Source: Rhodoferax sp.
GTDB taxonomy: Bacteria > Pseudomonadota > Gammaproteobacteria > Burkholderiales > Burkholderiaceae_C
NCBI RefSeq assembly: GCF_039922535.1
Contig: NZ_JBDTEM010000147.1
Coordinates: 523-64,522 of the forward strand
Length of the DNA stretch: 64,000 nucleotides
Direction: 5' to 3'
The notes below the pieces were generated by a model. It was not told the origin of the DNA and ran no database searches. It saw only the letters and a program-made list of their open reading frames with translations. Each line of letters starts with the position of its first letter. The stretch's first letter is position 1. A program made the translations under genes and the position numbers. Of the stretch, positions 309 to 64,000 are shown piece after piece.

Positions 309-345
309 GCGGGGATGGTAGCGCGCTGGGGCGCAGGCTGCAAAG

Positions 346-409
346 TTACAAGCTTTTTAGGCCTCCAGCGCAATATTCACCTACGGTAGAAGCTACTTTT
401 TATATAGCA
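346..409 (+). repeat. Copy of dispersed bipartite palindromic repeat (box A TGCCTCCAGCGC...; box B GCTAY-N7-ATAGC)
   Basis: TTACAAGCTTTTTAGGCCTCCAGCGC...AGAAGCTACTTTTTATATAGCA aligns without gaps to the copy at 14664-14727. Confidence 0.8.
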
Positions 410-610
410 AATACAGACGGCAGATCCGGAACCGTCACGGGGTAGTCTGGGCCGCCCACCGCAGCAAAACCGGGTGCAAGGTCAACCGCAACCGGCTTTC
501 CGGCGTTAAAAACCTATCCCCAAGGGATTTGTGGGGTCTGGAAACACCTTTTTCACAAACCCGCATACAGTTTCTTCATCTGCCAACACGGCAACCTACA
601 GCCAAACACC

Positions 611-5434: not shown

Positions 5435-6442
5435 TTACGGCATGACCTTCAGGTCTTTCACAAACTGCGTCGTGTAGGCCTTTTTCCAGTCCACACCGGG
5501 CTTGAGCAGACCAGCGGAGAGCATGAACTTGTAGGTTTGCTCCCAGCGCGCGTCGGTCATCACGCCCACGCCCTGGGTAGCGGCATCACCGCCGTCCACG
5601 GCCTTGACTTCCTTCATGCGTTTCACGGCGAAGGCGATCAGGTCGTCTTCCATCTTCGGGTTGTCTTTTTTAATCAGCGCGTTGCCGGGTGCGGGGTCGG
5701 CCAGATAGCTTTTCCAGCCTTCCATCGAAGCGCGGACAAAGCGGGCCACCACATCCGGTTTCTCGGCCACCATCTTTTGCTGCGTGACGATAGTGGTGCC
5801 ATACGGCGGATAGCCCTGGTCGCCCAGCAGGAAGAAGTTGGCTGGCACATTGCTCTTCATGGCCATGAACGGCTCGGACGACAGGTAGGCGCTTTGGGCC
5901 ACGTTCTTGTCGACGATGAAGGGCTGCAGATTGAAGGTGTAGGGCCGCACCTGGTCCATGCTGTAGCCGTACTTGCCCAGCAGCCAGGGCAGCCAACTGG
6001 TCTGGGCGGAGGTGTTGGCCAGGATGGTCTTGCCCTTCAGGTCGGCCAGGCTCTTCACATCGTCGTGCGCCATGATGCCTTGCAGGTCTTTCTGGAACGA
6101 GGCCGCCACCGTTACCACCGGCAGGCCTTTTTCCACTGCGTTCAGGGTCTGGATGTCGTAGCCCATGATGAAGTCGGCCTGGCCCGCCGCCAGCAGCTGG
6201 ATGCCGTTGACCTGCGGGCCACCCATCTTGATGGTTACGTCCAGCCCGTACTTTTTGTACAAGCCGGTGGCCACCGCCTGGTAGAAGCCGCCGTGCTCGG
6301 CCTGGGCGTACCAGGATGTGAGCATGGTCACCTTGTCCTGCGCCCAGGCGGCGCTGGTGAGGGTGGTGGCAGCCAGGGTGGTGGCTGTCAGGGCCAGGCG
6401 GGAAAACCACCGGCGATAGAGAGGTTGGGGTTGGCGATGCAT
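5435..6442 (-). CDS. ABC substrate-binding protein, NMT1/THI5-like
   Basis: Signal peptide (...AAWA-QD); TSWYAQAEHGGFYQAVATGLYKKYGLDV and GGPQVNG are typical of NMT1/THI5-like SBPs. Confidence 0.9.
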   Translation of the reverse strand: MHRQPQPLYRRWFSRLALTATTLAATTLTSAAWAQDKVTMLTSWYAQAEHGGFYQAVATGLYKKYGLDVTIKMGGPQVNGIQLLAAGQADFIMGYDIQTLNAVEKGLPVVTVAASFQKDLQGIMAHDDVKSLADLKGKTILANTSAQTSWLPWLLGKYGYSMDQVRPYTFNLQPFIVDKNVAQSAYLSSEPFMAMKSNVPANFFLLGDQGYPPYGTTIVTQQKMVAEKPDVVARFVRASMEGWKSYLADPAPGNALIKKDNPKMEDDLIAFAVKRMKEVKAVDGGDAATQGVGVMTDARWEQTYKFMLSAGLLKPGVDWKKAYTTQFVKDLKVMP

Positions 6443-6615
6443 GGCTATCCGTCCTAAAGCTAAATTGCTGTGGAAAGACGAAAGCACCGCGCAGAGACAG
6501 GCCCAGAACACCGCACCAGGGCGCGGATGGCCAACAGCTGTTCTCCGTGGCGTTCACACATGAACACCAATGCACGCGCCGGGCGGCGTGTGCATGCGAC
6601 GGCACTTCCGTCACC

Positions 6616-6723: not shown

Positions 6724-6767
6724 GGGTGGCTAGCACGCCGGTTAGCGCCATCCCGGACAATACCCGC

Positions 6768-7721
6768 ATGCCCACCCCCACCCATTTGCTGATTCCCCTG
6801 GCCGCCAGCGCGTCTGACGGCTGCCGCCAGGCGCTGGCCACGCTGCGCCTACCGAACCTGGAGCGCCTGCTCCAGCGCCTCACCGCCACCGCCCACGATA
6901 GCGGTGAAGACACCAGCCTGTCGCCCCCGCACGAACGCGCCCTGGCCCGGCACTACGGCCTGCCGGTGGCCGACGGCCAAATCCCCTGGGCGGCACATGA
7001 GGTGGCACAAGTGGCAGCGCAAGACGGTGCCTGGGCCTACATCACCCCCTGCCACTGGCAGGTGATGACCGACCACATCGTGATGGCCCCGCCCGACACG
7101 CTGGGGCTGGAAGAAGCCGAATCCCGCGCCGTGCTCGCCGCCGTGCGGCCCTTTTTTGAAGAAGACGGCATCACACTCACCTACGCCAGCCCCACCCGCT
7201 GGCTGGCGCAAGGCGAAATTTTTCGCGGTCTGGCCACGGCCTCGCTGGACCGCGTGGTCAGCGGCGTGGGCGCACGCAATGTGGATGAATGGATGCCCCC
7301 CACGGCCCAGGGCGGCCCGCTGCGGCGGCTGCAGAGCGAGATGCAGATGCTGCTCTACACCCATGCCGTCAGCGATGCCCGTAACGAACGCGGCCTGTTC
7401 CCGATCAACTCGTTCTGGGTCAGCGGCAGCGGAGCCTTGGCAGCGCCACCCGCGCCACAACCCGCCCCCAGCATGCCGCTGACCCTGCTGCACGCCGCGC
7501 AGATGGAGGACTGGGCAGCCTGGACCGCCGCCTGGCAGCACATCGACACCACCGCCTGCGCCGAACTGCTGACTGCGCTGGACCAGGGCCAAGCCGTGCA
7601 ACTCACGCTGTGCGGTGAAAGCAACGCGCAAAGCTTCGAGGTAGTGCCGCGCAACTTCTTCCAGAAAATTTCAAGCCTTTTAAGCCCCCAGCGCTTATCT
7701 AACTTGCTGGAGAAGCTATGA
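6768..7721 (+). CDS. Conserved hypothetical protein upstream of recJ (often annotated phosphoglycerate mutase-like/RpfE-type)
   Basis: ITPCHWQV, LQSEMQMLLY and INSFWVSGSG motifs; ATGA overlap with recJ. Confidence 0.7.
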   Translation: MPTPTHLLIPLAASASDGCRQALATLRLPNLERLLQRLTATAHDSGEDTSLSPPHERALARHYGLPVADGQIPWAAHEVAQVAAQDGAWAYITPCHWQVMTDHIVMAPPDTLGLEEAESRAVLAAVRPFFEEDGITLTYASPTRWLAQGEIFRGLATASLDRVVSGVGARNVDEWMPPTAQGGPLRRLQSEMQMLLYTHAVSDARNERGLFPINSFWVSGSGALAAPPAPQPAPSMPLTLLHAAQMEDWAAWTAAWQHIDTTACAELLTALDQGQAVQLTLCGESNAQSFEVVPRNFFQKISSLLSPQRLSNLLEKL

Positions 7722-7732
7722 AAATTACAGCA
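7669..7732 (+). repeat. Repeat copy spanning the upstream gene's C-terminus and the recJ start codon
   Basis: TTTCAAGCCTTTTAAGCCCCCAGCGC...AGAAGCTATGAAAATTACAGCA is colinear with the copies at 346 and 14664. Confidence 0.7.
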
Positions 7733-9442
7733 CGCGACATTCCGCCCCGCGCCGTCTGGGCGCTGGAGCAAGCCGGGGTCCACCCCCTGCTGGCGCGCTT
7801 GTTCGCCGCCCGTGGCGTGGCCGACAAAGACGCGCTGGACGACGGCCTGGGCAAGCTGCTGTCGCCCGCCAGCATGCTGGGCACGCAAGCCGCCGCCGTG
7901 CTGCTGGCCGACGCCATTGCCGCCGACAAAAAGCTCTGCATCGTGGCCGACTACGACTGCGACGGTGCCACCGCCTGCGCCGTCGGCCTGCGCGGCCTGC
8001 GCCTGCTGGGCGCCAAGCACGCCGACTACATCGTGCCCGACCGCGTGACCGACGGCTACGGCCTGACGCCCAGCATCGCCCGCCGCGTGAAAGACAGCGG
8101 CGCCGACATGCTGGTCACCGTGGACAACGGCATCGCCAGCCTGGAAGGCGTGGCCGAGGCCAAGGCCCTGGGCTTGCAGGTGCTGGTAACCGACCACCAT
8201 TTGCCGGCACTGAAAGACGGCCAGATCGTGCTGCCGGATGCCGACGTGCTAGTGAACCCCAACCAGCCGGGCTGCGGCTTCGAGAGCAAATCGATTGCCG
8301 GTGTTGGAGTCATGTTCTACGTGCTGCTGGCATTGCGTGCCGAGCTGCGCAGCAGGGGTGTATTCACGGCAGAGAACCAGCCCAAGTTGGACCCGCTGCT
8401 GACGCTCGTTGCCCTGGGCACCGTGGCCGATGTGGTTAAGCTGGATGCGAACAACCGCCGCCTTGTAGCCCAAGGGTTAAAACGGCTTCGCGCGCAGGCG
8501 CAACCTGCGGGACTAGCTGCGTTATTTGTAGCAGCCGGGCGCCAGGCCAAGGTCGCCACGACCTTCGATTTCGGCTTTGCCCTCGGCCCGCGCATCAATG
8601 CCGCAGGCCGCCTGGCCGACATGACGCTGGGGATAGAGTGCCTGCTGACCGACGACCCGGCGCGCGCTACCGAATTGGCCACCACCCTGGACAAAATCAA
8701 CCGCGAACGCCGCGAGATCGAAGGCGGCATGCGCGACCAGGCGATGCTGGTGGCCGAGTCGCTGTTCGACGAATCCGAGGAGCCGCCGCCAGCGGTCTGC
8801 GTGTTCGACCCGGACTTCCACGAAGGCGTGGTCGGCATCGTCGCCAGCCGCCTGAAAGACAAGCTGCACCGCCCCATCTTCGTCTTCGCTGCCAGCAAGG
8901 CGCCGGGCAAAGAGCATGAACTCAAGGGCTCGGGCCGCTCCATCCCCGGCTTCCATCTGCGCGACGCACTCGACCTGGTGGCCAAGCGCCACCCTGGCGT
9001 GCTGCTGCGCTTTGGCGGCCACGCCATGGCAGCGGGCTGCACCGTGCATGAAGACAACTTTGCGCAGTTTGAACAGGGCCTGCAACAGGTGGCGCTGGAA
9101 TGGCTGGACGCCGCCACGCTGACGCGCCGCCTGGAGACCGACGGCCCGCTGGCACCCGAATACCGCCGCGCCGAGCTGGTCGATGTGCTGCACAAAGAGG
9201 TCTGGGGCCAGGGCTTTGCGCCACCCACGTTCAGCGAAGAAGTCGAAGTGGTGTCGCAGCGCCTGGTGGGCGAAAAGCATTTGTCGCTGAAACTCAAGCA
9301 CCAGGGCCAGCCGGTGGACGGCATCTGGTTTGGCCACACCGAGAGCTTGCCGCCCCGGGTCACGCTGGCGTTTCGGCTGGATGTGAACGAGTGGCAGGGC
9401 CAGCGGCGCGTGCAGTTTCTGGTGGAAGCCGCAGAGGAATAA
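7718..9442 (+). CDS. recJ: Single-stranded-DNA-specific exonuclease RecJ
   Basis: DYDCDG, TVDNG, TDHH, GPRINAAGRL and GSGRS...FGGHAMAAG motifs. Confidence 0.97.
   Translation: MKITARDIPPRAVWALEQAGVHPLLARLFAARGVADKDALDDGLGKLLSPASMLGTQAAAVLLADAIAADKKLCIVADYDCDGATACAVGLRGLRLLGAKHADYIVPDRVTDGYGLTPSIARRVKDSGADMLVTVDNGIASLEGVAEAKALGLQVLVTDHHLPALKDGQIVLPDADVLVNPNQPGCGFESKSIAGVGVMFYVLLALRAELRSRGVFTAENQPKLDPLLTLVALGTVADVVKLDANNRRLVAQGLKRLRAQAQPAGLAALFVAAGRQAKVATTFDFGFALGPRINAAGRLADMTLGIECLLTDDPARATELATTLDKINRERREIEGGMRDQAMLVAESLFDESEEPPPAVCVFDPDFHEGVVGIVASRLKDKLHRPIFVFAASKAPGKEHELKGSGRSIPGFHLRDALDLVAKRHPGVLLRFGGHAMAAGCTVHEDNFAQFEQGLQQVALEWLDAATLTRRLETDGPLAPEYRRAELVDVLHKEVWGQGFAPPTFSEEVEVVSQRLVGEKHLSLKLKHQGQPVDGIWFGHTESLPPRVTLAFRLDVNEWQGQRRVQFLVEAAEE
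8479..8532 (+). repeat. Degenerate repeat-like segment inside recJ
   Basis: 32/54 ungapped identity to the copy at 39310-39363, in a patch of rare codons (TTA, CTA, GTA, CTT). Confidence 0.45.
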
Positions 9443-9553
9443 GAAGCTGTTGTTCTGAGGCTGGCGTCTTTGGCTAAGCCAAAGCTTGGGCGCACAAAAA
9501 TGTGCGGCATGGACGATTCGCTCCATGCACCAACCACAGACCCAAGGAACACC

Positions 9554-10015
9554 ATGCAACTCCGTCAATTATTTATGTGCGCAGGGCTTGCCTGCGCCGT
9601 CTTGTCCAGCGGCTGCACGTCGATCATGAGCGAAGTCATAGCTGCCAAACAAAATGGCAGCGAAGGCCTGGCGGTGGAATACCCGGTCACGGAAAACCAG
9701 GCCTGGGACATCGCCAAAACCGTGCTGCGTGAAGCCGGTGCGCAGGCCATAGAAGAGCACCGCGCCGAAAACTACATGCTGACCACCAGCCCCAACACCC
9801 TCGGTGTATCCGGCGCGCTGGTGGGTGTGTGGATCAGCAAGGGCGGCGTGTCTACAAGCACGGTGACGGTGATCACCAAACGCCAGATCAAATCCGCCCT
9901 GTTCGTTGCGCCTACCGAAGCCAAACTGCAAAGCCAGTTTGCACAAGCGGTTGCGCAACTGCACAAGAACGTCACCTACATGCTGGTGCCGCCCGACGCA
10001 AAACCCCAAAGCTGA
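9554..10015 (+). CDS. Hypothetical lipoprotein
   Basis: GGAAC RBS, hydrophobic signal and lipobox LSSG-C; no family recognised. Confidence 0.7.
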   Translation: MQLRQLFMCAGLACAVLSSGCTSIMSEVIAAKQNGSEGLAVEYPVTENQAWDIAKTVLREAGAQAIEEHRAENYMLTTSPNTLGVSGALVGVWISKGGVSTSTVTVITKRQIKSALFVAPTEAKLQSQFAQAVAQLHKNVTYMLVPPDAKPQS

Positions 10016-14656: not shown

Positions 14657-14663
14657 ACCAGAT

Positions 14664-14727
14664 TTACAAGCTTTTTAGGCTTCCAGCGCAGGTGGCACCT
14701 GCACTGGAAGCTATTAAATAAATAGCA
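14664..14727 (+). repeat. Repeat copy between convergent IclR and MCP genes
   Basis: TTACAAGCTTTTTAGGCTTCCAGCGCAGGTGGCACCTGCACTGGAAGCTATTAAATAAATAGCA. Confidence 0.85.
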
Positions 14728-14734
14728 TCTGGCT

Positions 14735-25835: not shown

Positions 25836-25840
25836 CTAAA

Positions 25841-25885
25841 TACTCCTATTTTTATAGCTGCTTGCGCACGTATTACCTGCGCCAT
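25841..25885 (-). repeat. Repeat copy inside the island that supplies the EthD gene RBS
   Basis: Minus strand TGGCGCAGGTAATACGTGCGCAAGCAGCTATAAAAATAGGAGTA, followed by TTTAG-ATG. Confidence 0.7.
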
Positions 25886-27042
25886 TAGGCAGTTCGACCA
25901 CCTAATGTTTCGGCCACCCAGTCGGCGATGTAGGCACCGGCATTGGCGCTGTTGTCGAAGCTGCTGTGCTGCACCCCGCCCTCGCGGTCGGTGAAGATCT
26001 TCAGCTCGCGTTTCGGGCTGTTGACCAACTGCTCATAGGTGGCATGCGCCCACTTCAGCGGGATCTGAGAATCCTTTTCGCCATGGGTCACCAGGAACGG
26101 CACCTTGATGCGGTCCAGGATGCCGTCCAGATGCACGTCCTGCGCAATGCGCATGAAGTCGTCGATGTTCTTGGCGCCCCAGACCCAGCAAACGTGCGCC
26201 CAGTAGTGCGGAACAGGAAGATTGCCTTCCTTGGCCAATCGTTTAGCCTGCACGTCGCGCCAGTCGTGGTTGGCACCCCAGACCACACCCATGGCAAAGC
26301 GCGGCTCGAAGGCCACGGCGCGCGGGCAGTAGTAGCCGCCGAGCGATACGCCTTCCATGCCGATGCGCTTGGGGTCCACATCGGCGCGGGTTTCCAGCCA
26401 GTCCACTACGCGGCTGGCCCAGTGTTCGCTGTCAAAGCGCGCAGTCAGCCCGCGCAGACGCAGCGCATCGCCGGTGCCCGGCTGGTCGATGATCAGCGAT
26501 GAAACGCCCCGCTTGGCCAGCCAGCCCGGCAGGCCCACCAGGTACTTCATCTCCTTGGTCGAATCCAGGCCGTTGACCTGCAGCAGCAGGGGTGCCGGTC
26601 CCGAAGTGCCTTCGGCGTGCACCAGCAGGCCCGAGAGAAAGCTGTCGCCGTAGGGGATCTGCACCCGCTCGCAGTTGTCGCGGGCCAGCGCAATGCCCTT
26701 GGAGAATAGTTCCTCGAAACGCTGGTACAGCGCGATCCGCCCGGGCGCGCCGTGGGCCTGCAGGCGTTCGCAGGTCAGCAGGTAGTTGGCCGCGCGTTTG
26801 TATTTTTCACCGGCAGACAGCAGGCGGCCTGCGGCCTCGTCTTCTTCGGCCAGGCCGCACAGCTTCTCGGCCATGTGTTGCCAGGTTTCGCGGAAGGCGG
26901 CGGTGCCTGCGGCATCGGGCTGTTTGGCAGCCTCTTGTAGTGGCTTGCACATGACCTCGATTTCACCGATGCGCGCGCCCATCTCCAGGGCCAGGTTGAC
27001 GGACAGGTCCCAGACGTAATTGGTGGGGAAGTAACGGAACAT
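25885..27042 (-). CDS. Alpha/beta hydrolase, 2,6-dihydropseudooxynicotine hydrolase-like C-C/ester hydrolase (FdeB-like)
   Basis: NGLDSTKE, DQPGTG, GVSLGGYY nucleophile elbow, HGEKD and GGVQH. Confidence 0.88.
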   Translation of the reverse strand: MFRYFPTNYVWDLSVNLALEMGARIGEIEVMCKPLQEAAKQPDAAGTAAFRETWQHMAEKLCGLAEEDEAAGRLLSAGEKYKRAANYLLTCERLQAHGAPGRIALYQRFEELFSKGIALARDNCERVQIPYGDSFLSGLLVHAEGTSGPAPLLLQVNGLDSTKEMKYLVGLPGWLAKRGVSSLIIDQPGTGDALRLRGLTARFDSEHWASRVVDWLETRADVDPKRIGMEGVSLGGYYCPRAVAFEPRFAMGVVWGANHDWRDVQAKRLAKEGNLPVPHYWAHVCWVWGAKNIDDFMRIAQDVHLDGILDRIKVPFLVTHGEKDSQIPLKWAHATYEQLVNSPKRELKIFTDREGGVQHSSFDNSANAGAYIADWVAETLGGRTA

Positions 27043-38824: not shown

Positions 38825-39310
38825 ATGGATTTCCCCCTGCACCAACTCAGCATGACCGTTCTGATGAGCCCGGACATGGCCAATTTCTCCGGCAACGTGC
38901 ACGGCGGCGCGGTGCTCAAGCTGCTGGACCAGGTGGCCTACGCCTGCGCCAGCCGCTACGCCGGGCGCTACGTGGTCACGGTCAGCGTGGACCAGGTGAT
39001 GTTTTTGCAGCCCATCCACGTGGGCGAGCTGGTGACCTTTTTGGCCAGCATCAACCACGCGGGCACCTCGTCGATGGAGGTCGGCATCAAGGTGGTGGCC
39101 GAAGACATCCGCACCCACAGCGTGCGCCATGTGAACAGCTGCTTTTTCACCATGGTGGCCGTGGGCGACGACCGCAAGCCCGCGCCAGTGCCGCCATTGC
39201 TGCCCGCCACGCCCGATGAAAAACGCCGCTTCGAGCAGGCCATTCTGCGCAAAAACCTGCGCCACGAGCTGCGCAACCGGTTCAAGTCGATCAAAGAGAC
39301 TTCTGAATAA
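38825..39310 (+). CDS. HotDog-fold acyl-CoA thioesterase (YciA-like)
   Basis: NFSGNVHGGAVLKLLDQVA, VTVSVD and TSSMEVG. Confidence 0.92.
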   Translation: MDFPLHQLSMTVLMSPDMANFSGNVHGGAVLKLLDQVAYACASRYAGRYVVTVSVDQVMFLQPIHVGELVTFLASINHAGTSSMEVGIKVVAEDIRTHSVRHVNSCFFTMVAVGDDRKPAPVPPLLPATPDEKRRFEQAILRKNLRHELRNRFKSIKETSE

Positions 39311-39364
39311 AAAGTGCCTCCAGCGCAGGTATCACCTGCGCTGGCAGCTATTGTTTCAATAGCA
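39310..39364 (+). repeat. Repeat copy (near-perfect internal hairpin) between convergent genes
   Basis: AAAAGTGCCTCCAGCGCAGGT-ATC-ACCTGCGCTGG-CAGCTATTGTTTCAATAGCA. Confidence 0.9.
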
Positions 39365-39365
39365 C

Positions 39366-39920
39366 CTACCGGTCACGGTCAATGGCGGAGCCCATGTCGT
39401 CCAGCCACAGCACGCGGTCGGCGTAGCACTGCAGGTCGGCCGACAAGGTGCTCTGCGCGCCGTTGAGCCAAACCTCCTTGCGCAGGTCGGACTTAAGGTA
39501 CGAGATGGCATCTTCAAAGTCGCCATCGCCCGCCGACAAAATCACCCGGTCGTAAATGCCCTGCGCGGCCAGCTTGATCATCAGCGTGGCGATCGCCACG
39601 TCCACGCCTTTTTGCACGGTGCGGTCAAACCGCGTGCCGCAGGACGGGCACTGGTTGTGCTGGTCCTTGAGCTTGTACAGCTGCACGCGCATCTGCGGGC
39701 CCTTGGGCGGCGCGGATTTGATCCAGGTGTGGAAGGCGTTTTGCGCCTCTGCATGGGGGTCGCCGGTGGAGTTGAGGTAGTAGCTCTCGTACAGCGGGCC
39801 GCCGTTGGCCTTGACCAGCTCGTTTTTCAGCTTCAGGTAGTCAAAGCCATTGGGACGCGCACGGCCAAAGTTGTACAGGTAGGCGGCATCGACGATCCAG
39901 ACAGTCTTCATGGGGGTCAC
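39366..39920 (-). CDS. NYN domain (LabA/DUF88, PIN-like) protein
   Basis: IVDAAY, QKGVDVAIA and SAGDGDF acidic motifs, plus a CPSC insertion. Confidence 0.85.
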   Translation of the reverse strand: MTPMKTVWIVDAAYLYNFGRARPNGFDYLKLKNELVKANGGPLYESYYLNSTGDPHAEAQNAFHTWIKSAPPKGPQMRVQLYKLKDQHNQCPSCGTRFDRTVQKGVDVAIATLMIKLAAQGIYDRVILSAGDGDFEDAISYLKSDLRKEVWLNGAQSTLSADLQCYADRVLWLDDMGSAIDRDR

Positions 39921-40322: not shown

Positions 40323-41066
40323 TTACCCCGCCATGGCTTCCCGCACCGCCGCCAGTTGCCGCCGCGACACCATCAGCGGCTCGTCCAGCCCGTGCAGACG
40401 CACCGCCCAGCCTTCACCCTCCTCCGGGTCGAAATGTTTTTCCAGCGCCCGCAAGGCCCGCCGGGACACCAGCGCGTTGCGGTGGATGCGGATGAACACA
40501 CTGGCAAAGCGCTGCTCCAGCTCGCCCAAGGCACCGTCCAGGATGAAGTGCTTGGTGGCGGTGCGCACGGTGATGTATTTCAGCTCGGCCTTCAGGTACA
40601 GCACGCCCGACAGCGGCACACGCTCGGTGCGGCCCCGGTCGTGGATCACCAGCGATTCTTCAGCCAAATCGGGCTCTGGCGCAGTACGCACCTGCGCAGA
40701 GCGCTCTACTTTTTGTAGTGCCTGCTGCAAACGCTGCAGCCGTACCGGTTTGGTCAAATAGTCCAGTGCCTCCAGGTCAAACGCCTGTAGCGCGTGGCCC
40801 GCGTGCGCGGTAACGAACACCACGGCGGGGCCGCCGCCCTGGGCCCGCAGCTGCTGCGCCAGTTGCACGCCGTCCATGCCGGGCATGTGGATGTCGAGCA
40901 GCAGCAGGTCGAAGGGCTGGGTCGGCAGCAGCGCCAGGGCTTCTGCAGCGGTGCTGGCCTCAGCCGCCACCTCGGCCGCAGGCGCGGTGCAGTCGCCCAG
41001 CAAGGTGCGCAGGCGGGCCCGGGCCAGGGTTTCGTCGTCCACCAATAAAACGCGCAAGGCCTTCAT
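40323..41066 (-). CDS. algR: LytTR-family response regulator (AlgR-like)
   Basis: LLVDDETLAR, LLDIHMPG, FVTAH, DYLTKP and FIRIHRNALV. Confidence 0.85.
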   Translation of the reverse strand: MKALRVLLVDDETLARARLRTLLGDCTAPAAEVAAEASTAAEALALLPTQPFDLLLLDIHMPGMDGVQLAQQLRAQGGGPAVVFVTAHAGHALQAFDLEALDYLTKPVRLQRLQQALQKVERSAQVRTAPEPDLAEESLVIHDRGRTERVPLSGVLYLKAELKYITVRTATKHFILDGALGELEQRFASVFIRIHRNALVSRRALRALEKHFDPEEGEGWAVRLHGLDEPLMVSRRQLAAVREAMAG

Positions 41067-43568: not shown

Positions 43569-43586
43569 AAAGCCTTACCAGACAAT

Positions 43587-43642
43587 TGCTATTAAATATA
43601 GAGCCGCTGGCGCAGGTAGATACTGCGCCAGCGGCCTTTTTT
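43587..43642 (-). repeat. Repeat copy downstream of argH (also a terminator-like hairpin)
   Basis: GCTATTAAATATAGA-GCCGCTGGCGCAG-GTAGATA-CTGCGCCAGCGGC-CTTTTTT. Confidence 0.85.
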
Positions 43643-43749
43643 ACGTGAATTTTCAGGCCCGCGAACGCCCTTGCGGTACATCAAAGGCAGCCTGCCCCGG
43701 TAGGCCGCACAATGGGGTTTCTTCAACCCGCTTTGCGCAAAGGCTCCCC

Positions 43750-46225: not shown

Positions 46226-46280
46226 GCTATTTAATTTATAGCTGCCTGCGCAGGCGGAATATGCGCTGGCGCCCTATTTC
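46226..46280 (-). repeat. Repeat copy between convergent genes
   Basis: GCTATTTAATTTATAGCTGCCTGCGCAGGCGGAATATGCGCTGGCGCCCTATTTC. Confidence 0.75.
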
Positions 46281-47385
46281 ACCAATTAAATCCATCCAAA
46301 TCCATGTCCCGCTGCCGGGCCTTGGCTTCGCGGCGGTAGTCCTTGACGAACTCTTTGATGCCCAGCGGATACTTGAGCCACAGGGCATCTTCCTGGAGAT
46401 TCTGGAGCTGGGCGCGCAGGCCCTTCAGGTCGCGATTCAGCACCCGGATCAGGCCCACAGGTGTCAACCTCTCAAACGGCGACACGCCACATTGCATGCG
46501 CAAGCCCATTTCGATGTCGTCGGTTTCGGCGTTCAGCTCGGCCAGTTGCTCTTTCAGCACCCGGTTGTAGTGCTTGAGCCGGTCTTCGGACAGGCCCGCC
46601 ATGGTGCTGGCGTCGATGTGCTCCAGCTCCAGTTGCAGTTCCAGCAGTTGCAGCAGGTCTTTTTTGACGTAGGCCTGGTTGACCCGCTGCATCAACTCGG
46701 TTTTGCGCGTGCGCTCGGCGACATCAGGCTCGCGGTCGGGGTGCAGGGCGCTGGCCAGTTTGCGGTAGACCTCGCGGATGGATAGACTGGTTTGCGCATC
46801 CTCCAGCTTTTGCTGCGCCTCCAGTGCTTGTTGCTTGGCGCTGGGTTTTTTGGTACGCGGGGGCGCAGTATCGGCCTGCTGGCCCAACAGTTTCGCCAGC
46901 AATTCTTCGGGTGACTGCGACGGGTTCTCGGCAAACACGTCCGGCCCGTAAACGTCTTCCATCGCCTTGTCAAAGTGGGCATCCAGTTCGGCTTCTTCGG
47001 CCAACTCGGCATCCCAGTCGGTGGGGCTGTGCTGGTTGTAAAGCGCTTTCATCGCCTCATCGCCGGTACTCTCCAGCACGTTGCGGGCGATCTCGCAGAT
47101 CACTTCCGCGGCCGTTTTGCGGTCGGCCTTGGTCAGGCCGGGCTGGCCCAGGGCCTTGTCCAACCCGTTCGCAAAAGCCACCTGCGCCGCGCGGTACTGC
47201 GCCTGCAGCGGGGCGTAGTCGCTGGCCACTTTGTGCCGGTAGCTATCGGCAGCGGTTTGCCATTGCAGCAGCAGGTCGCGCTGCTTGGCGATCTTGGCCA
47301 CCAGGGTGTTGAAGGCTTTTTGGCCCGGGCTCAGCGTGGACTGGGCTTGCGGGGGAACGATGCGAATCTGTCGGGGTGCCGTCAC
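46279..47385 (-). CDS. Coiled-coil protein with internal J-domain-like HPD motif
   Basis: IREVYRKLASALHPDRE...ELMQRVNQAY; GTG start. Confidence 0.8.
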   Translation of the reverse strand: MTAPRQIRIVPPQAQSTLSPGQKAFNTLVAKIAKQRDLLLQWQTAADSYRHKVASDYAPLQAQYRAAQVAFANGLDKALGQPGLTKADRKTAAEVICEIARNVLESTGDEAMKALYNQHSPTDWDAELAEEAELDAHFDKAMEDVYGPDVFAENPSQSPEELLAKLLGQQADTAPPRTKKPSAKQQALEAQQKLEDAQTSLSIREVYRKLASALHPDREPDVAERTRKTELMQRVNQAYVKKDLLQLLELQLELEHIDASTMAGLSEDRLKHYNRVLKEQLAELNAETDDIEMGLRMQCGVSPFERLTPVGLIRVLNRDLKGLRAQLQNLQEDALWLKYPLGIKEFVKDYRREAKARQRDMDLDGFNW

Positions 47386-48674: not shown

Positions 48675-49820
48675 ATGCCCATCTCCCGCCGTCCTCTCCT
48701 TGCCCTGCCCTGGCTACTCGGTCTATGGTGCCTGCCCACGCACGCGGCAGTGGCGGGCAACACCTTGCAAGTCGGCCCCACGCGGACTATCAAAACAATA
48801 GCTGCCGCCGCACGATTGGCGGGCGCTGACACCACAATTGAAGTAGATGCGGGCGATTACGTGGGCGACGTGGCGGTGTGGACCCAACCCAACCTGAACC
48901 TGCGTGCCGTGGGCGGCCGGGTCCGCCTGCGGGCCAACGGCATGGCGGCCGAGGACAAAGGCATATGGGTGGTGCGCAGCCCCAAGCTCACGGTGGAAGG
49001 CTTTGACTTTGAAGGTGCGCAGGTGCCGGGCCGCAACGGTGCGGGCATCCGCTTTGAATCCGGCTGGCTGGTGGTGCGCAATTGCAGCTTCACGCACAAC
49101 GAAATGGGCCTGCTCACCAGCAACGACAACACCGCCGTGCTGGAGGTCGAAAACAGCGAATTCGCCTACAACATGCGCCCCGACGGGCACAACCACAACC
49201 TCTACATCGGCCAGATTGCCCGCGCCACGGTGACCGGCAGCTACCTGCACCACGCCCGCACCGGCCACCTGCTGAAAAGCCGCGCCGCCATCAGCCACAT
49301 CCTGTACAACCGCCTGACCGACGACGGCGGCAGCGCCAGCTACGAGCTGGAGTTTCCCAACGGCGGCGTGGCCGTGGTGGTGGGCAACATCATCCAGCAA
49401 GGCCCGCTGACCGAAAACCCGGTGCTCATTGCCTTCGGGGCCGAGGGCTACACCTGGCCCTTCAACCAGCTCAGCCTGGCCTACAACACCCTGGTGGACG
49501 ACCTGCCCAGCGGCGGCAGCTGGCTGAAGGTCAAACCCGGTGCCGATGCCGTGCTGGCCGTCAACAACCTGCTGGTCGGCACAGCACCGCTACAGGCCAT
49601 CCCATCGGGCGACTTCCGCAATAACTTCAACACCGACCGCAGCAGCCTCGCCCCCGGCGGCAGCTACCGGCTGCGCGCAGGCTCGCCGCTGCTGGGCAAA
49701 GCCATCGCACTGGACCCCAACCTGCAAGCCCAGCGTGAATATAGTCACACGGCCAAGAGCATTGCGCTCAACATTGCCCCGCATAATCCCGGAGCGATGC
49801 AGCGCCCGCTGGCGCGCTAG
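48675..49820 (+). CDS. Secreted right-handed beta-helix (pectin lyase-like) protein
   Basis: RR-containing signal, GRNGAGIRF, HNLYIG, GHLLKSRA and Asn/Gly ladder repeats. Confidence 0.8.
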   Translation: MPISRRPLLALPWLLGLWCLPTHAAVAGNTLQVGPTRTIKTIAAAARLAGADTTIEVDAGDYVGDVAVWTQPNLNLRAVGGRVRLRANGMAAEDKGIWVVRSPKLTVEGFDFEGAQVPGRNGAGIRFESGWLVVRNCSFTHNEMGLLTSNDNTAVLEVENSEFAYNMRPDGHNHNLYIGQIARATVTGSYLHHARTGHLLKSRAAISHILYNRLTDDGGSASYELEFPNGGVAVVVGNIIQQGPLTENPVLIAFGAEGYTWPFNQLSLAYNTLVDDLPSGGSWLKVKPGADAVLAVNNLLVGTAPLQAIPSGDFRNNFNTDRSSLAPGGSYRLRAGSPLLGKAIALDPNLQAQREYSHTAKSIALNIAPHNPGAMQRPLAR

Positions 49821-51539: not shown

Positions 51540-51567
51540 GGCACACTCTCTTTTTTGACGTCAAAAT

Positions 51568-51610
51568 AAATAGCGGCTGGCGCAGGTAGTACCTGCGCCA
51601 GCCGCTATTT
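51568..51610. repeat. Perfect 21-bp inverted repeat (repeat-family derived; likely bidirectional terminator)
   Basis: AAATAGCGGCTGGCGCAGGTA-G-TACCTGCGCCAGCCGCTATTT between the convergent asnB-like gene and hisD. Confidence 0.9.
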
Positions 51611-51629
51611 TTATGCCTGAAAAATGGGC

Positions 51630-52952
51630 TTAAATCGGGTCTAAACGCATTTCCGCCGCCCGCGCATGGGCCTGCAGGCCTTCGCCATAGGCCAGCTCGG
51701 CGGCGATGCGGCCCAGGGGCTGGGCACCGGCCTGGCTGACTTCGATGAGGCTGCTGCGCTTTTGGAAGTCGTAGACCCCCAGCGGGCTGGAAAAGCGGGC
51801 CGTGCCGCTGGTCGGCAGCACGTGGTTGGGTCCGGCGCAGTAGTCGCCCAGGCTTTCGCTGGTGTAGGCACCCAAAAAGATGGCTCCGGCATGTTTGAGC
51901 AGCGGTTCCCAACGGTGCGGGTCGGTGCTGCTGACTTCCAAATGCTCGGGGGCGATGCGGTTGCTGATCTCGCAGGCCTCTTCCATGCTGCGGGTGTGGA
52001 TCAGCGCGCCACGGCCGGTGAGCGACTTGGCGATGATCTCGGCGCGGGGCATCTCGTTCAGCAGGCGGTCGATGCTGGCCTGCACCTGGGCTATGTACGC
52101 CGCATCCGGGCACAGCAAGATGCTTTGCGCCAGCTCGTCGTGTTCGGCTTGGCTGAACAGGTCCATCGCCACCCAATCGGGCGGGGTTGTGCCGTCGGCC
52201 AGCACCAGGATTTCGCTGGGGCCGGCAATCATGTCGATGCCCACGGTGCCGAAAACGCGGCGCTTGGCCGCTGCCACGTAGGCGTTGCCGGGGCCGGTGA
52301 TCTTGTGGACGTTGGGGATAGTGGCCGTGCCATAGGCCAGCGCGGCCACGGCCTGCGCGCCGCCGATGGTGTAGGCGCGGGTGACACCGGCCACATAGGC
52401 CGCAGCCAGCACCAGCGCGTTCTTTTCGCCACGGGGCGTAGGCACCACCATGATGATCTCGCCGACACCGGCCACGTGCGCGGGGATGGCGTTCATCAGC
52501 ACGCTGCTGGGGTAGGCGGCCTTGCCACCGGGCACGTAGATGCCCACGCGGTCCAGCGGCGTGACCTTTTGGCCTAAAAGCGTGCCGTCGGCATCGCGGT
52601 AGCTCCAGCTCTCGCCCGAGGCCTTTTTCTGCGCCTCGTGGTAGGTGCGGACTCGGGCGGCTGCGGCCTGAAGAGCTTCGCGCTGGGCTGCGGGAATGGT
52701 GTCGAAGGCGGCTTTGAGCTCGGCCTGGGTCAGTTCCAGTTCGGCCAGGGTGCTGGCTTGCAAACCGTCAAAGCGATTCGTGTACTCCAGCACCGCCGCG
52801 TCGCCGCGCTGCTGCACGTCGGCGAGGATGTCGGCAACGACCTTTTCAATCGCCGTGTCCGCCTCGGCAGACCAGTGCAGGCGGGCTTTGAATTCAGCCT
52901 CAAAAGTGCTGCTAGCACTGGATAGACGTGCGGGAGTAGCTACGAAATTCAT
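51630..52952 (-). CDS. hisD: Histidinol dehydrogenase
   Basis: [34 protein letters not shown] and [11 protein letters not shown]. Confidence 0.98.
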
Positions 52953-52955
52953 AGT
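52902..52955 (-). repeat. Repeat-like segment overlapping the hisD start
   Basis: ACTATGAATTTCGTAGC (box B) followed by 27/42 ungapped identity to the reverse complement of the 39310 copy; AT-ending codons. Confidence 0.5.
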
Positions 52956-52957
52956 AT

Positions 52958-58181: not shown

Positions 58182-58907
58182 TTATTTGGCTGCATCAGGT
58201 ACGGGCAGATCGGGCGGGTTGCCGTCGTACACCTCGCTGCGGCGCACCTGCAGGTAGAAGTCGCGGGTAAAGCTGTATTTGTCCAATGCGGCCTCGTCCA
58301 GCACCGCGCCTGCGCGCAGCAGATTGGCACGGATGTTGATCAGGTTCAGGCCCGTCAAACGGTCGCGGTCGCCCGAGTGGGGCACGGCGTTGAGCGCGTT
58401 ACCCTGCATGTCGACGGGCAGCGCAGCCGTATCGCGCACGGTCGATGGCCCCAGCAGCGGCAGCACCAGGTACGGCCCCGACGGCACGCCCCACACGCCC
58501 AGCGTCTGGCCGAAATCTTCTTTATGGCGCTCCAGCCCCATATCGGTGGCCAGGTCAAAAACGCCGCCTATGCCAAACACGGTGTTAATACTGAAGCGCA
58601 TCCAGCTTTCCGCCGCCGCCCGGCCCTTGAACTGCAAGGCGTTGTTGGCGGTGCTCCAAACATCCCCCAGGTTGGAGAAGAAATTGGTCACCCCCTGGCG
58701 CACCAGCGACGGCGTGACATAGGTGTAGGCCTTGGCCACGGGCTTGACCACGGCGTTGTCCACCACCTCGTTGAAGCCGAAGATCTGGCGGTTCATGGGC
58801 TCCAGCGGATCACGCGGATTGGCCTGGGGGCCGGTCGCGCAACCAGAAATAAGGACAAAAATGCCTGCAGCGGAGGTAAGGGTTGCGTATCTAGCTATAT
58901 TTTTCAT
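58182..58907 (-). CDS. mlaA: VacJ/MlaA lipoprotein
   Basis: Lipobox ISG-C, DPLEPMNR, EDFGQTLG and GPYLVLPLLGPST. Confidence 0.94.
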   Translation of the reverse strand: MKNIARYATLTSAAGIFVLISGCATGPQANPRDPLEPMNRQIFGFNEVVDNAVVKPVAKAYTYVTPSLVRQGVTNFFSNLGDVWSTANNALQFKGRAAAESWMRFSINTVFGIGGVFDLATDMGLERHKEDFGQTLGVWGVPSGPYLVLPLLGPSTVRDTAALPVDMQGNALNAVPHSGDRDRLTGLNLINIRANLLRAGAVLDEAALDKYSFTRDFYLQVRRSEVYDGNPPDLPVPDAAK

Positions 58908-58910
58908 AGT
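58858..58910 (-). repeat. Repeat copy forming the mlaA start codon and signal-peptide codons
   Basis: ACTATGAAAAATATAGCTAGATACGCAACCCTTACCTCCGCTGCAGGCATTTT is 35/53 identical, ungapped, to the reverse complement of the 39310 copy. Confidence 0.65.
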
Positions 58911-58933
58911 ATTTAATGGAGTGGACTCCACCG

Positions 58934-61152: not shown

Positions 61153-61174
61153 AAAAGCACCCACCCAATTTTCA

Positions 61175-61232
61175 TGCTATTTATTTAAGAGCCTCTTATG
61201 CAAGCTCAATATGCGCTAGCGGCCAAAAAAGC
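61175..61232 (-). repeat. Degenerate repeat copy
   Basis: TGCTATTTATTTAAGAGCCTCTTATGCAAGCTCAATATGCGCTAGCGGCCAAAAAAGC. Confidence 0.6.
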
Positions 61233-61311
61233 ATCCAACTTCCACCATGCCACCTCTTCCAGAACAGCGCAGAACTGGCTCCGCCAGGCTGCTGCTGTTG
61301 CTCCCTGCTTG

Positions 61312-62889: not shown

Positions 62890-64000
62890 TTACTTGGCAG
62901 GCACGGCTTCATTTTTAATAGCTGCTTGTGCAGATGCTGCCTGCGCTAGAGCCACTTTTCGTGCATGCATTTCGCCCAGGGCACGTTGGTACTCCAGCGG
63001 GAACACCTTGACGAACTTGCCACGGGCTTCGGCCCAGGTGTCGAGCAGGTCACGGGCGCGCTTGCTACCGGTCCAGCGGTTGTGGTCTTCCAGCAGCTTC
63101 TTGAGCTGGGCTTCGTCGGTCTGGCCGTTGTGCCATTGGTCGGCCACGCCCAGGCCTTGTTGCTCGCCCGAGGGCAGCACGCGCTCCAGCGACACCATGG
63201 CCATGTTGCAGCGCTTGGCGAAATGGCCGTCTTCGTCGTACACGTAGGCGATACCGCCGCTCATGCCCGCCGCAAAGTTACGGCCGGTCTTGCCCAAAAT
63301 CAGCGCCGTGCCGCCGGTCATGTACTCGCAACCGTGGTCGCCCGTGCCTTCCACCACCGTGGTGGCACCCGACAGGCGCACTGCAAAGCGCTCGCCGGCC
63401 ACGCCGCTGAAGAAGGATTCGCCGCTGGTCGCGCCGTACATCACCGTGTTGCCGACGATGGTGTTCTGCGTAGCCACGCCACGGAAGTCGATGCTGGGGC
63501 GCACCACGATACGGCCACCGCTCAGGCCCTTGCCGGTGTAGTCGTTGGCATCGCCAATCAGGTACAGCGTGATGCCGTTGGCCAGGAAGGCGCCAAACGA
63601 CTGGCCGCCCGTGCCTTCGAGCTGGATGCGGATGGTGTCGTCCGGCAGGCCTTCGGGGCGCACCTTGGTCAGCGCACCCGAGAGCATGGCCCCCAGCGAA
63701 CGGTTGACGTTGCGCGCCACTTCCATGAACTTAACCTTTTCGCCGCGCAGGATGGCGGGCTGCGATTTCTCGATCAGCACGTTGTCCAGCGATTTTTCCA
63801 GGCCGTGCTCTTGGTTTTGCACGTGGTAGCGCGGCACATCGGCGGGCACATTGGGCTGGGCGAACAGACGGTTGAAGTCCAGGCCGCTGGCCTTCCAGTG
63901 GGCAATGCCCTTGCGGGTGTCCAGCAGGTCGGCACGGCCAATCAGGTCGTCGAACTTGCGGATGCCCAGCTGGGCCATGATCTGGCGCACTTCTTCGGCG
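62890..64000 (-). CDS. gltB: Glutamate synthase large subunit, C-terminal part (runs off the window end)
   Basis: [39 protein letters not shown] and [11 protein letters not shown]. Confidence 0.98.
62906..62959 (-). repeat. Repeat copy encoding the GltB C-terminal tail
   Basis: AAAAGTGGCTCTAGCGCAGGCAGCATCTGCACAAGCAGCTATTAAAAATGAAGC is 38/54 identical, ungapped, to 39310-39363 and encodes [18 protein letters not shown]. Confidence 0.75.

Follow-up and report, generated by a model that had tools for sequence, protein, structure and literature searches.

A 64,000-nucleotide stretch of a Rhodoferax sp. genome (contig NZ_JBDTEM010000147.1, positions 523 to 64,522; hereafter the window) carries recJ, which encodes the single-stranded-DNA exonuclease RecJ, and in the middle of this gene a short patch of rare codons follows, without a gap, the sequence of a dispersed repeat family that resembles the repetitive extragenic palindromes (REP). 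The resemblance of the recJ site to the repeat is real and far beyond chance, and the motif was made by substitution, not by insertion. In the repeat-bearing lineages of Rhodoferax, Albidiferax and Polaromonas it is old and has a fixed position, and it is absent, with ordinary G/C-ending codons in its place, from relatives that lack the repeat family. Our preferred reading, to which we assign a probability of roughly 0.55, is that the recJ site is a degenerate member or a mimic of this REP-like family, lying over codons 253-272 and kept by selection for a putative recognition site.

RecJ passes the NCBIfam equivalog model TIGR00644 (434.5 bits, cut-off 396.9), and its closest relative, with 98% identity, comes from a metagenome-assembled genome (MAG) of an uncultured Albidiferax. 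The GC content of the window is 64.4% and that of third codon positions in the gene (GC3) 0.83; against this background 15 codons of a 29-codon window end in A or T where 5.0 are expected, the maximum elsewhere in the gene being 10. Codons 249-272 (8462-8533) read CTT GTA GCC CAA GGG TTA AAA CGG CTT CGC GCG CAG and then GCG CAA CCT GCG GGA CTA GCT GCG TTA TTT GTA GCA, and the encoded peptide, which follows the GTVADVV motif immediately, is part of the ancestral DHH domain. The features of the gene, in window coordinates, are the following:

7718-9442, plus strand: recJ coding sequence (574 amino acids), from the list of open reading frames (ORFs), TIGR00644 and RecJ homologs in the PDB.
8462-8535, plus strand: the whole patch of rare codons ending in A or T (codons 249-273), from the codon listing and the count of A/T-ending codons.
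8476-8533, plus strand: repeat-family motif superimposed on codons 253-272, the main finding, from an ungapped nhmmer match, rank in a position weight matrix (PWM) scan and synonymous-shuffle nulls.
8492-8509, plus strand: short inverted repeat GCGCAGG-CGCA-ACCTGCG, like the stem of this lineage's repeat copies.
8503-8533, plus strand: widely conserved core, here ACCTGCGGGACTAGCTGCGTTATTTGTAGCA (clade consensus CCTGCGGGACTAGCTAGYCTTTTTRTAGCA), including the AGCT-N10-TAGC(A) module, from the consensus of patch-bearing genomes.

The repeat family itself consists in the window of REP-like elements of about 60-70 nt with, once oriented, a consensus of roughly (A/T-rich)AAGCCTTTTAGGCC-YCYAGCGC-(stem/loop)-GCGCYRG-CAGCTATTnAAAnnAATAGCA. 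Ten copies are clear, six of them between convergent genes, and four are degenerate (40662, 48787 on the minus strand, 52901 and 58854). The tag adjoining the stem is ATAG/CTAT in the family copies and GTAGC at the recJ site, and the central hairpin is weak in many relatives. The ten clear copies, together with the degenerate one at 52901, are:

344-412, plus strand: repeat copy (nhmmer).
7664-7737, plus strand: repeat copy across the junction of the upstream ORF and recJ (nhmmer; start at 7664 or 7667).
14663-14732, plus strand: reference intergenic copy, the best-scoring one, between convergent genes.
25838-25899, minus strand: repeat copy between two minus-strand genes.
39301-39369, plus strand: reference intergenic copy, 32/54 identical to the recJ site.
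43582-43651, minus strand: repeat copy with a hairpin and then a T-run, terminator-like.
46226-46286, minus strand: repeat copy between convergent genes.
51557-51621, no strand assigned: palindromic repeat copy between convergent genes, matched on both strands.
52901-52957, plus strand: degenerate copy, of all single copies the one most like the recJ site (35/54).
61173-61239, minus strand: repeat copy.
62901-62962, minus strand: repeat copy between convergent genes.

Aligned without gaps to the repeat copies of the window, positions 8479-8532 of recJ are identical at 24-35 of 54 sites, with exactly 32/54 to the copy at 39316. The full composite GCGCAGG-N4-ACCTGCG-N5-AGCT-N10-TAGC occurs without mismatch at only two places in the window, 8492-8532 and the repeat copy at 39323; with up to three mismatches allowed, all nine matches are family members where shuffles expect none, and the AGCT-N10-TAGC module alone is matched nine times against an expectation of 0.81. 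An nhmmer profile built from the ten window copies (E values for 2.9 Mb) matches 8476-8533 ungapped over model positions 9-66 (58 positions, 14.3 bits, E=0.032), so that the site aligns in register along most of the profile length, as a sequence match to the family. A broad multi-genome family profile gives the same site 10 bits (E=0.85). The PWM scan gives the recJ site a score of 30.6, which places it 14th among 127,886 window positions. All 13 with higher scores are family sites or opposite-strand images of them, and away from the repeat copies and the sequence directly beside them no score exceeds about -8.

For the synonymous-shuffle nulls, the same peptide was recoded and scored by the PWM. 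Recoding with normal codon usage gives -34 +/- 6.5 (z=9.9), and none of 100,000 recodings reaches the recJ score. When the pattern of A/T-ending codons is kept, the excess persists, both with the gene's own usage (z=4.8, 0/100,000) and with uniform codon choice (p=0.0015), and moving the same number of A/T-ending codons to random positions again gives 0/100,000. The A/T- and G/C-ending codons of the patch are thus placed as the A/T and GC blocks of the repeat are, which is more than mere A/T-richness. The earlier note on this DNA, made from the sequence alone, had described an AT-rich rare-codon patch in an otherwise GC3-rich recJ and an ungapped 32/54 match to the repeat, and both descriptions hold, the first in sequence and frame and the second for the copy at 39316. 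It had also named a score inside the synonymous-shuffle null as speaking against its proposal; the recJ match falls far outside, including where the A/T pattern is retained.

To place the patch among its relatives, we compared 80 RecJ orthologs from Comamonadaceae, 76-98% identical, which together with the window make up 81 genomes. All 80 align through the patch segment without a gap, and distantly related RecJ proteins of known structure (8y30; Deinococcus 5f54; Thermus 2zxo) possess the same segment with differences of 1-3 residues. The motif was therefore written by codon choice and not inserted. The residues extra to the orthologs that mark intragenic REP insertions or Rickettsia palindromic elements (RPE) are not seen at the recJ site, nor is its location extragenic as for REP in general, since it occupies codons 253-272 of a 574-codon gene. 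The changes that make the motif are rare synonymous codons and a few tolerated residue replacements, among them Ser268, which completes AGCTA, and Ile/Val271, which yields ATAGCA/GTAGCA. Moreover, the G/C-ending codons inside the patch coincide with the GC blocks of the repeat (position-permutation null 0/100,000), making a generic AT-rich donor unlikely. The suggestions that the patch peptide is colinear with ordinary RecJ and that the motif arose by codon choice are borne out by the absence of any indel (0/80), of larger differences in the structures and of any added residue; neither of the two outcomes held to contradict them, an indel in orthologs (80/80 have none) or simple recombination from an AT-rich donor (improbable given the matching GC blocks and ordinary flanks), was encountered.

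The patch is present in about 23 of the 81 genomes, all from the Rhodoferax/Albidiferax/Polaromonas group (the window, L001-3, L005, L009-11, L014-17, L020, L022, L023, L031, L037, L040, L041, L046, L058, L064 and L077); L027 was dropped from this set because its patch, with a high count of A/T-ending codons, is not repeat-like. In most patch-bearing genomes the patch is the gene-wide maximum of A/T-ending codons, and their consensus reads CAA GGg yTa AAA CGg GTn CGn GCc CTy GCC ATG CCT GCg GGa CTA GCT AGy CTT TTT rTA GCA. Among 21 patch-bearing genomes, codon columns 263, 265-267 and 269-272 are at least 90% A/T-ending, most of them dominated by one specific rare codon (CCT, GGA, CTA, GCT, CTT, TTT, GTA/ATA, GCA). 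The choice differs between columns of the same amino acid: two alanine columns are fixed on different rare codons, GCT at 267 and GCA at 272, and leucine is likewise CTA at 266 and CTT at 269. Outside the patch, no four- or six-fold degenerate column of recJ shows a like A/T-ending fixation in these 21 genomes; four-fold sites there are 0.55 identical against 0.40 expected from composition, compared with 0.74, on rare bases, within the patch. Interspecies nucleotide identity is raised over about 12 codons only, the flanks being ordinary, which speaks against a larger segment having been transferred recently. In the remaining 58 genomes (Variovorax, Hylemonella, Ramlibacter and many Rhodoferax-like MAGs) nearly the same peptide is encoded with common codons.

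The part shared throughout the clade is the right half, CCTGCG-GGACT-AGCTA-N9-TAGCA (CCTGCGGGACTAGCT..CTTTTTRTAGCA), while the GCGCAGG left arm is found only in the window's own lineage (the window and L001-L003), where Leu/Met is replaced by Gln; the other patch-bearing genomes read GCC CTY GCC ATG CCT GCG in place of this arm. Of the blocks that had been singled out as preserved (GCGCAGG, ACCTGCG and AGCT-N10-TAGC), all are present in the window's site and the right half is conserved, but the hairpin arms GCGCAGG/ACCTGCG are specific to this lineage. The patch-bearing genomes are scattered on a poorly resolved neighbour-joining tree of RecJ, compatible with a single origin followed by losses or with multiple origins. 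A second A/T-rich region, near codon 340 of recJ in some relatives, was considered and set aside, as it consists of consecutive two-fold amino acids (Glu, Asp, Phe, Ile) and does not resemble the repeat.

The link between patch and repeat family holds across genomes. With a multi-genome PWM that draws on 75 family copies from the various loci and excludes those of the genome under test, every patch-bearing genome exceeds its own normal-usage null (0/5000), and most exceed the null that keeps the A/T-ending pattern (p from <0.0002 to 0.06). Scores are bimodal, with a mean of +12.9 in patch-bearing genomes and -49 in the others, which corresponds to 83% versus 37% of the synonymously possible score range. 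The maximum score that the peptide permits also differs (29.0 versus 8.6, Mann-Whitney p=6.5e-11), and some amino-acid differences, such as A268S and T271I/V, shift the sequence toward the motif. Family copies are found in the 20-kb locus in 19/23 patch-bearing genomes versus 7/58 of the others (Fisher p=2.4e-9). Patch similarity to own-genome repeats is 0.462 versus 0.429 to those of other genomes, a small effect. The idea that the repeat is a DNA-level signal embedded in coding sequence gains support from the codons conserved in about 23 genomes, from this co-occurrence with the family and from overlays in three other coding contexts.

The mid-gene site of recJ is indeed one of several overlays, the others lying in lolD, in an AlgR-type regulator and across the junction at the start of recJ. 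The repeat at 7664-7737 is wholly coding: it covers the last ~20 codons of ORF 6726-7721 (ending in FFQKISSLLSPQRLSNLLEKL and the stop codon), a conserved hypothetical, the ATGA overlap and the MKITA start of recJ (its first ~5 codons). This repeat is positionally conserved in many loci, and genomes without it have a colinear tail and N-terminus written in GC-rich codons. A family member also lies in lolD, about 2.7 kb upstream of recJ in at least 13 loci (LolD by TIGR02211, above cut-off); the window contains no lolD. The further sites are:

L022 5317-5380, minus strand: lolD family member, in the helical subdomain, with equivalents in L005, L006, L011, L014, L017, L020, L023, L031, L037, L040, L045, L064 and L077.
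40662-40718, plus strand: second overlay in the window, on the strand opposite an AlgR/LytTR response regulator (gene 41066-40326, minus strand; nhmmer 25 bits, E=1.3e-5).
58854-58911, plus strand: repeat-like site over the start codon and lipoprotein signal peptide (MKNIARYATLTSAAGIFVLISGC) of an MlaA gene (58937-58182, minus strand).
48787-48840, minus strand: repeat-like A/T-rich patch encoding the N-terminal TIKTIAAAARLAGADTTIEVDAGDY motif of a right-handed beta-helix protein (ORF 48675-49820, plus strand).

The lolD patch, GCC ATG CCA TTG ACA ATT CGG CGT CTA GCC CCC GTG GAA TGT GCG CAA GCA GCT ATG AAA ATG CTA GCA, is found by the family profile with E from 1e-5 to 1e-3 and is about 71% identical to an intergenic copy (counted on one pair). 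It is colinear with every ortholog (AMPLTIRRLAPVECAQAAMKMLA versus AMPLWIRRMAPAESAQAAMKTLA, no indel), and its motif stands in the same reading frame as that of the recJ patch. The site at 40662-40718 covers helix alpha-5 and the linker of the AlgR-type regulator (Pfam Response_reg and LytTR), whose homologs of 246-247 amino acids are colinear without a change in length. Its rare codons GCA CTA CAA AAA GTA GAG are kept in R. ferrireducens, Polaromonas and Comamonadaceae OS-1, and the antisense strand reads CTCTACTTTTTGTAGTGC, the same module as recJ GCTAGCCTTTTTGTAGCA. When the PWM is trained on the ten window copies alone, lolD patches score 12-42 against a normal-usage null of -4 to -25, and AlgR-type patches 11-42, three genomes lying at 34-42; both exceed the normal-usage nulls (0/2000, except L006 with 1/2000) and mostly those that keep the A/T pattern (p from <0.0005 to 0.1), while control lolD genes from L018, L079 and L030, all genomes without the recJ patch, stay within the null. 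Judged from sequence, the mlaA site at 58854 and the beta-helix site at 48787, the latter sharing about 81% of 26 nt with the copy at 39301 by our own count, are probably further overlays.

Three smaller observations concern the family and its embedded copies. Codon 258 of recJ and an Ala codon of the lolD patch are GCG or GCC in step with the AGCGC or AGCCC repeats of their own genome (L023 and L064 versus L022 and L040), with L011 and L041 as exceptions; this hints at concerted evolution and may reflect as few as two independent events. The repeat copy at 25838-25899 (minus strand) fills the gap between co-directional minus-strand genes, and as its right arm abuts the Shine-Dalgarno sequence and start codon (AGGAG-N7-ATG) of the downstream gene, the translation-initiation region is supplied by the repeat. 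Finally, isolated GCAGCTAT words at 9638, 24069 and 34028 (minus strand), outside the listed copies, may be more degenerate or embedded fragments of the family.

What is conserved at the recJ site is primary sequence rather than folding, and a stable mRNA hairpin is probably not what is selected. RNAalifold gave values of about zero for conserved structure on both strands of the patch, and an Rfam search over recJ at permissive thresholds (E up to 10) found no match there; a structured cis-regulatory RNA or known RNA family was rejected on these two grounds. The window's site can form a 6-7-bp stem, GCGCAGG/CCTGCG, which folds no better than the null keeping the A/T pattern (p=0.18) and whose left arm the relatives lack, and at least 97.5% of normal-usage recodings fold more strongly than the patch as a whole. 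A sigma-70 promoter scan of 7600-9600 returned no promoter-like sites, and a terminator scan one weak hit (8506-8521) within shuffle expectation. In the whole window the only Rfam match is a xanthine riboswitch (RF03054, 6612-6676, minus strand, 47.3 bits, with the gathering score at 36); it lies upstream of ORF 5435-6511 (minus strand), by its look a substrate-binding protein of NMT1/THI5 type.

We consider it very probable that a nucleotide-level pressure specific for the repeat family wrote the recJ patch and keeps it. Within such a pressure, selection for a recognition site is the form that we hold to be fairly likely, while drive appears possible yet rather unlikely. The conserved blocks AGCSC, TGCG and AGCTA-N9-TAGCA with its A/T-rich spacer would form the putative recognition site, and because of this the recJ motif would be held by purifying selection at the nucleotide level. 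The factor reading the motif would most likely recognise it as double-stranded DNA and would serve the intergenic copies as well; AGCTA-N9(A/T-rich)-TAGCA is a near-palindrome and so looks alike from either strand. Where exactly the motif lies may matter less than that it is present along the chromosome, and even inside genes it would be preserved through purifying selection at synonymous positions.

Several points weigh against this reading and should be kept in mind when interpreting it. The embedded sites lie in apparently arbitrary, tolerant protein segments, a placement as well suited to non-adaptive drive as to a distributed signal. Among sequencing runs, only ones of metagenomic DNA were found to contain the sequence, and no usable transcriptome turned up for it or for R. 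saidenbachensis. The broad family profile gives the recJ patches just 8-11 bits (E 0.4-6 in 2.9 Mb), which makes the recJ site a weak family member, those in lolD and the AlgR-type gene being much stronger. The set of patch-bearing genomes was defined after the data had been seen, the association tests ignore phylogeny, and some of the flanking repeats counted in the 19/23 versus 7/58 comparison are themselves coding overlays. The excess of own-genome similarity, lastly, hints at concerted evolution.

The main alternative, which we regard as unlikely though deserving of attention, is a non-adaptive molecular drive in which pieces of the repeat are copied into partly similar coding DNA by template switching or by templated repair of short patches; synonymous or tolerated changes would persist and the patch would be renewed as long as donors exist, without the motif having a function of its own. 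It would explain why presence of the patch tracks presence of the family, why the patch is slightly more similar to the repeat variant of its own genome, with Ala258 GCG/GCC in step with AGCGC/AGCCC in most genomes, and why embedded sites are scattered over tolerant protein segments. Repeat copies are also at hand about 760 nt upstream of the patch and, in several genomes, just downstream of recJ, and the amino acids are shifted toward the motif as is seen with uptake sequences (PMC2817400), whose accumulation the drive would resemble in its outcome. However, identity to any single copy is just 24-35/54 with longest exact runs of 7 nt, so that no conversion tract is visible, and conversion of the RecA type requires much more homology. 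The own-versus-other effect is small and has exceptions in L011 and L041, and the same rare codons recur across lineages with strongly diverged synonymous sites, even where no donor was detected nearby (L010, L016, L046, L058).

An improbable alternative takes the patch as a conserved cluster of rare codons, or an unstructured A/U-rich stretch of mRNA, that slows translation or alters mRNA handling; it might assist the DHH domain in folding during translation, or be a site for RNase E or for the entry of Rho, and its likeness to the repeat would be incidental. A dense run of the rarest codons (CTA, ATA/GTA, TTA, GGA) does stand at the same place in many species, and it is less structured than normal-usage recodings. 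Yet a translational pause would keep rarity and leave the rare codon free to vary, whereas here specific rare codons are fixed by column (GCT versus GCA, CTA versus CTT). Since the identity of the nucleotide is conserved and the motif occurs in other genes and on either strand, with the lolD and AlgR-type patches matching the same family, one of them on the antisense strand, a rare-codon pause does not explain the patch. The scores, in addition, beat the nulls keeping the rare-codon pattern in most genomes, and the patch is absent from equally GC-rich relatives with the same protein fold.

We find it very improbable that the repeat is an uptake or self-recognition sequence that builds up through biased uptake and recombination, its paired copies serving as terminator hairpins. 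Such a system, like the uptake signal sequences (USS) and DNA uptake sequences (DUS) that give it precedent (PMC2817400; PMC2346458), would account for the layout of inverted pairs between convergent genes, single copies in genes without a change in length, and a genome-maintenance gene as host. However, USS and DUS have a core at about one per kb, on both strands and largely in genes, and here no short core is strongly over-represented: a search for one gave no outlier k-mers, with GCGCAGGT occurring 23 times in 128 kb. The unit is instead a composite of about 60 nt, at about one per 4-8 kb, and mostly intergenic. We know of no sequence-specific uptake in Comamonadaceae, which also counts against this explanation. 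It can hardly be maintained that the likeness is due to chance, that the patch was recombined in from an AT-rich donor, or that the repeat was inserted in frame long ago in the manner of an RPE: any A/T-rich patch scores better against an A/T-rich repeat, and intragenic REP insertions in repair genes are documented (PMC3733652), but the nulls keeping A/T content are exceeded, the pattern of G/C- and A/T-ending codons mirrors the repeat blocks, flanks are not unusually similar between species, and there is no ortholog with an indel (0/80) and a difference of just 1-3 residues in distant RecJ structures.

Among known systems, the family recalls the REP, BIME and REPIN elements in being made of dispersed imperfect palindromes (at least 14 in 64 kb), mostly between convergent or co-directional genes, with lineage-specific variants and an (A/G)TAG-like tag next to the stem. 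It differs in its longer unit (~60-70 nt, with A/T-rich arms), in a tag that is ATAG/CTAT and not GTAG, in a central hairpin that is weak in many relatives, and in having several copies positionally conserved across genera and over coding sequence. Intragenic REP and RPE elements are insertions that add 20-80 residues and favour genes of DNA replication and repair (Di Nocera et al., 2013, PMC3733652); they share with our case a repeat-family member inside an ORF and a repair gene as host, but in recJ, lolD and the AlgR-type regulator no residue is added, and what the motif alters is the choice of codons, in segments that are ancestral and conserved in structure. In coding regions USS and DUS shift amino-acid usage (Findlay and Redfield, 2009, PMC2817400), and they too are genome-wide motifs put into genes by substitution at constant length, shifting codon and amino-acid usage, with intergenic copies that pair as hairpins; their cores, however, are of 9-12 nt (~30 nt extended), occur about once per kb and are linked to competence, as opposed to a composite of ~60 nt at lower density and without an over-represented core.

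The near-palindromic form, position inside ORFs, synonymous constraint and strand independence are likewise those of parS, matS, Noc and SlmA sites and of auxiliary operators of the lacO2 type, which are of 13-20 bp, number tens per genome and have known binders, while the repeat family described here is much larger. The BRE repeats are known from Bordetella and from Comamonadaceae including Rhodoferax and Polaromonas, some copies being entirely within coding sequences (PMC3110155). Despite the shared Comamonadaceae genera and the copies in coding sequence, BRE was rejected as the identity of the window family on the strength of its description (GC-rich at 69%, ~90 bp, tandem; PMC3110155).

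Intragenic REPs as insertions are thus already known, as are motifs written by substitution in the case of USS/DUS, Chi, parS and similar short sites; in the literature that we searched, we met no description of a REP-like composite of ~60 nt overlaying ancestral codons of several conserved genes across genera. Tentatively, we suggest that the REP-like family of Rhodoferax, Albidiferax and Polaromonas may exist in two states, as intergenic hairpin copies and as overlays written into coding segments by substitution. If this were true, there would have to be either a sequence-specific factor that needs its sites chromosome-wide, regardless of coding, or an undescribed form of templated rewriting that makes coding DNA converge on the repeat.

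REP-type families are regarded as DNA that is extragenic, mobile or parasitic, copies inside genes being put down to insertion. A family member over the ancestral codons of a core repair gene, kept across genera and with amino acids nudged toward it, implies a strong nucleotide-level pressure in coding sequence. Such patches can mimic the signals of horizontal transfer or of rare codons, and can mislead the annotation of repeats, terminators and gene starts. If selection is at work, a genome-wide recognition system would be there to be identified, for which the overlays would be clean, recodable test sites; if it is drive, dispersed repeats would have a new route to shape proteomes without DNA uptake.

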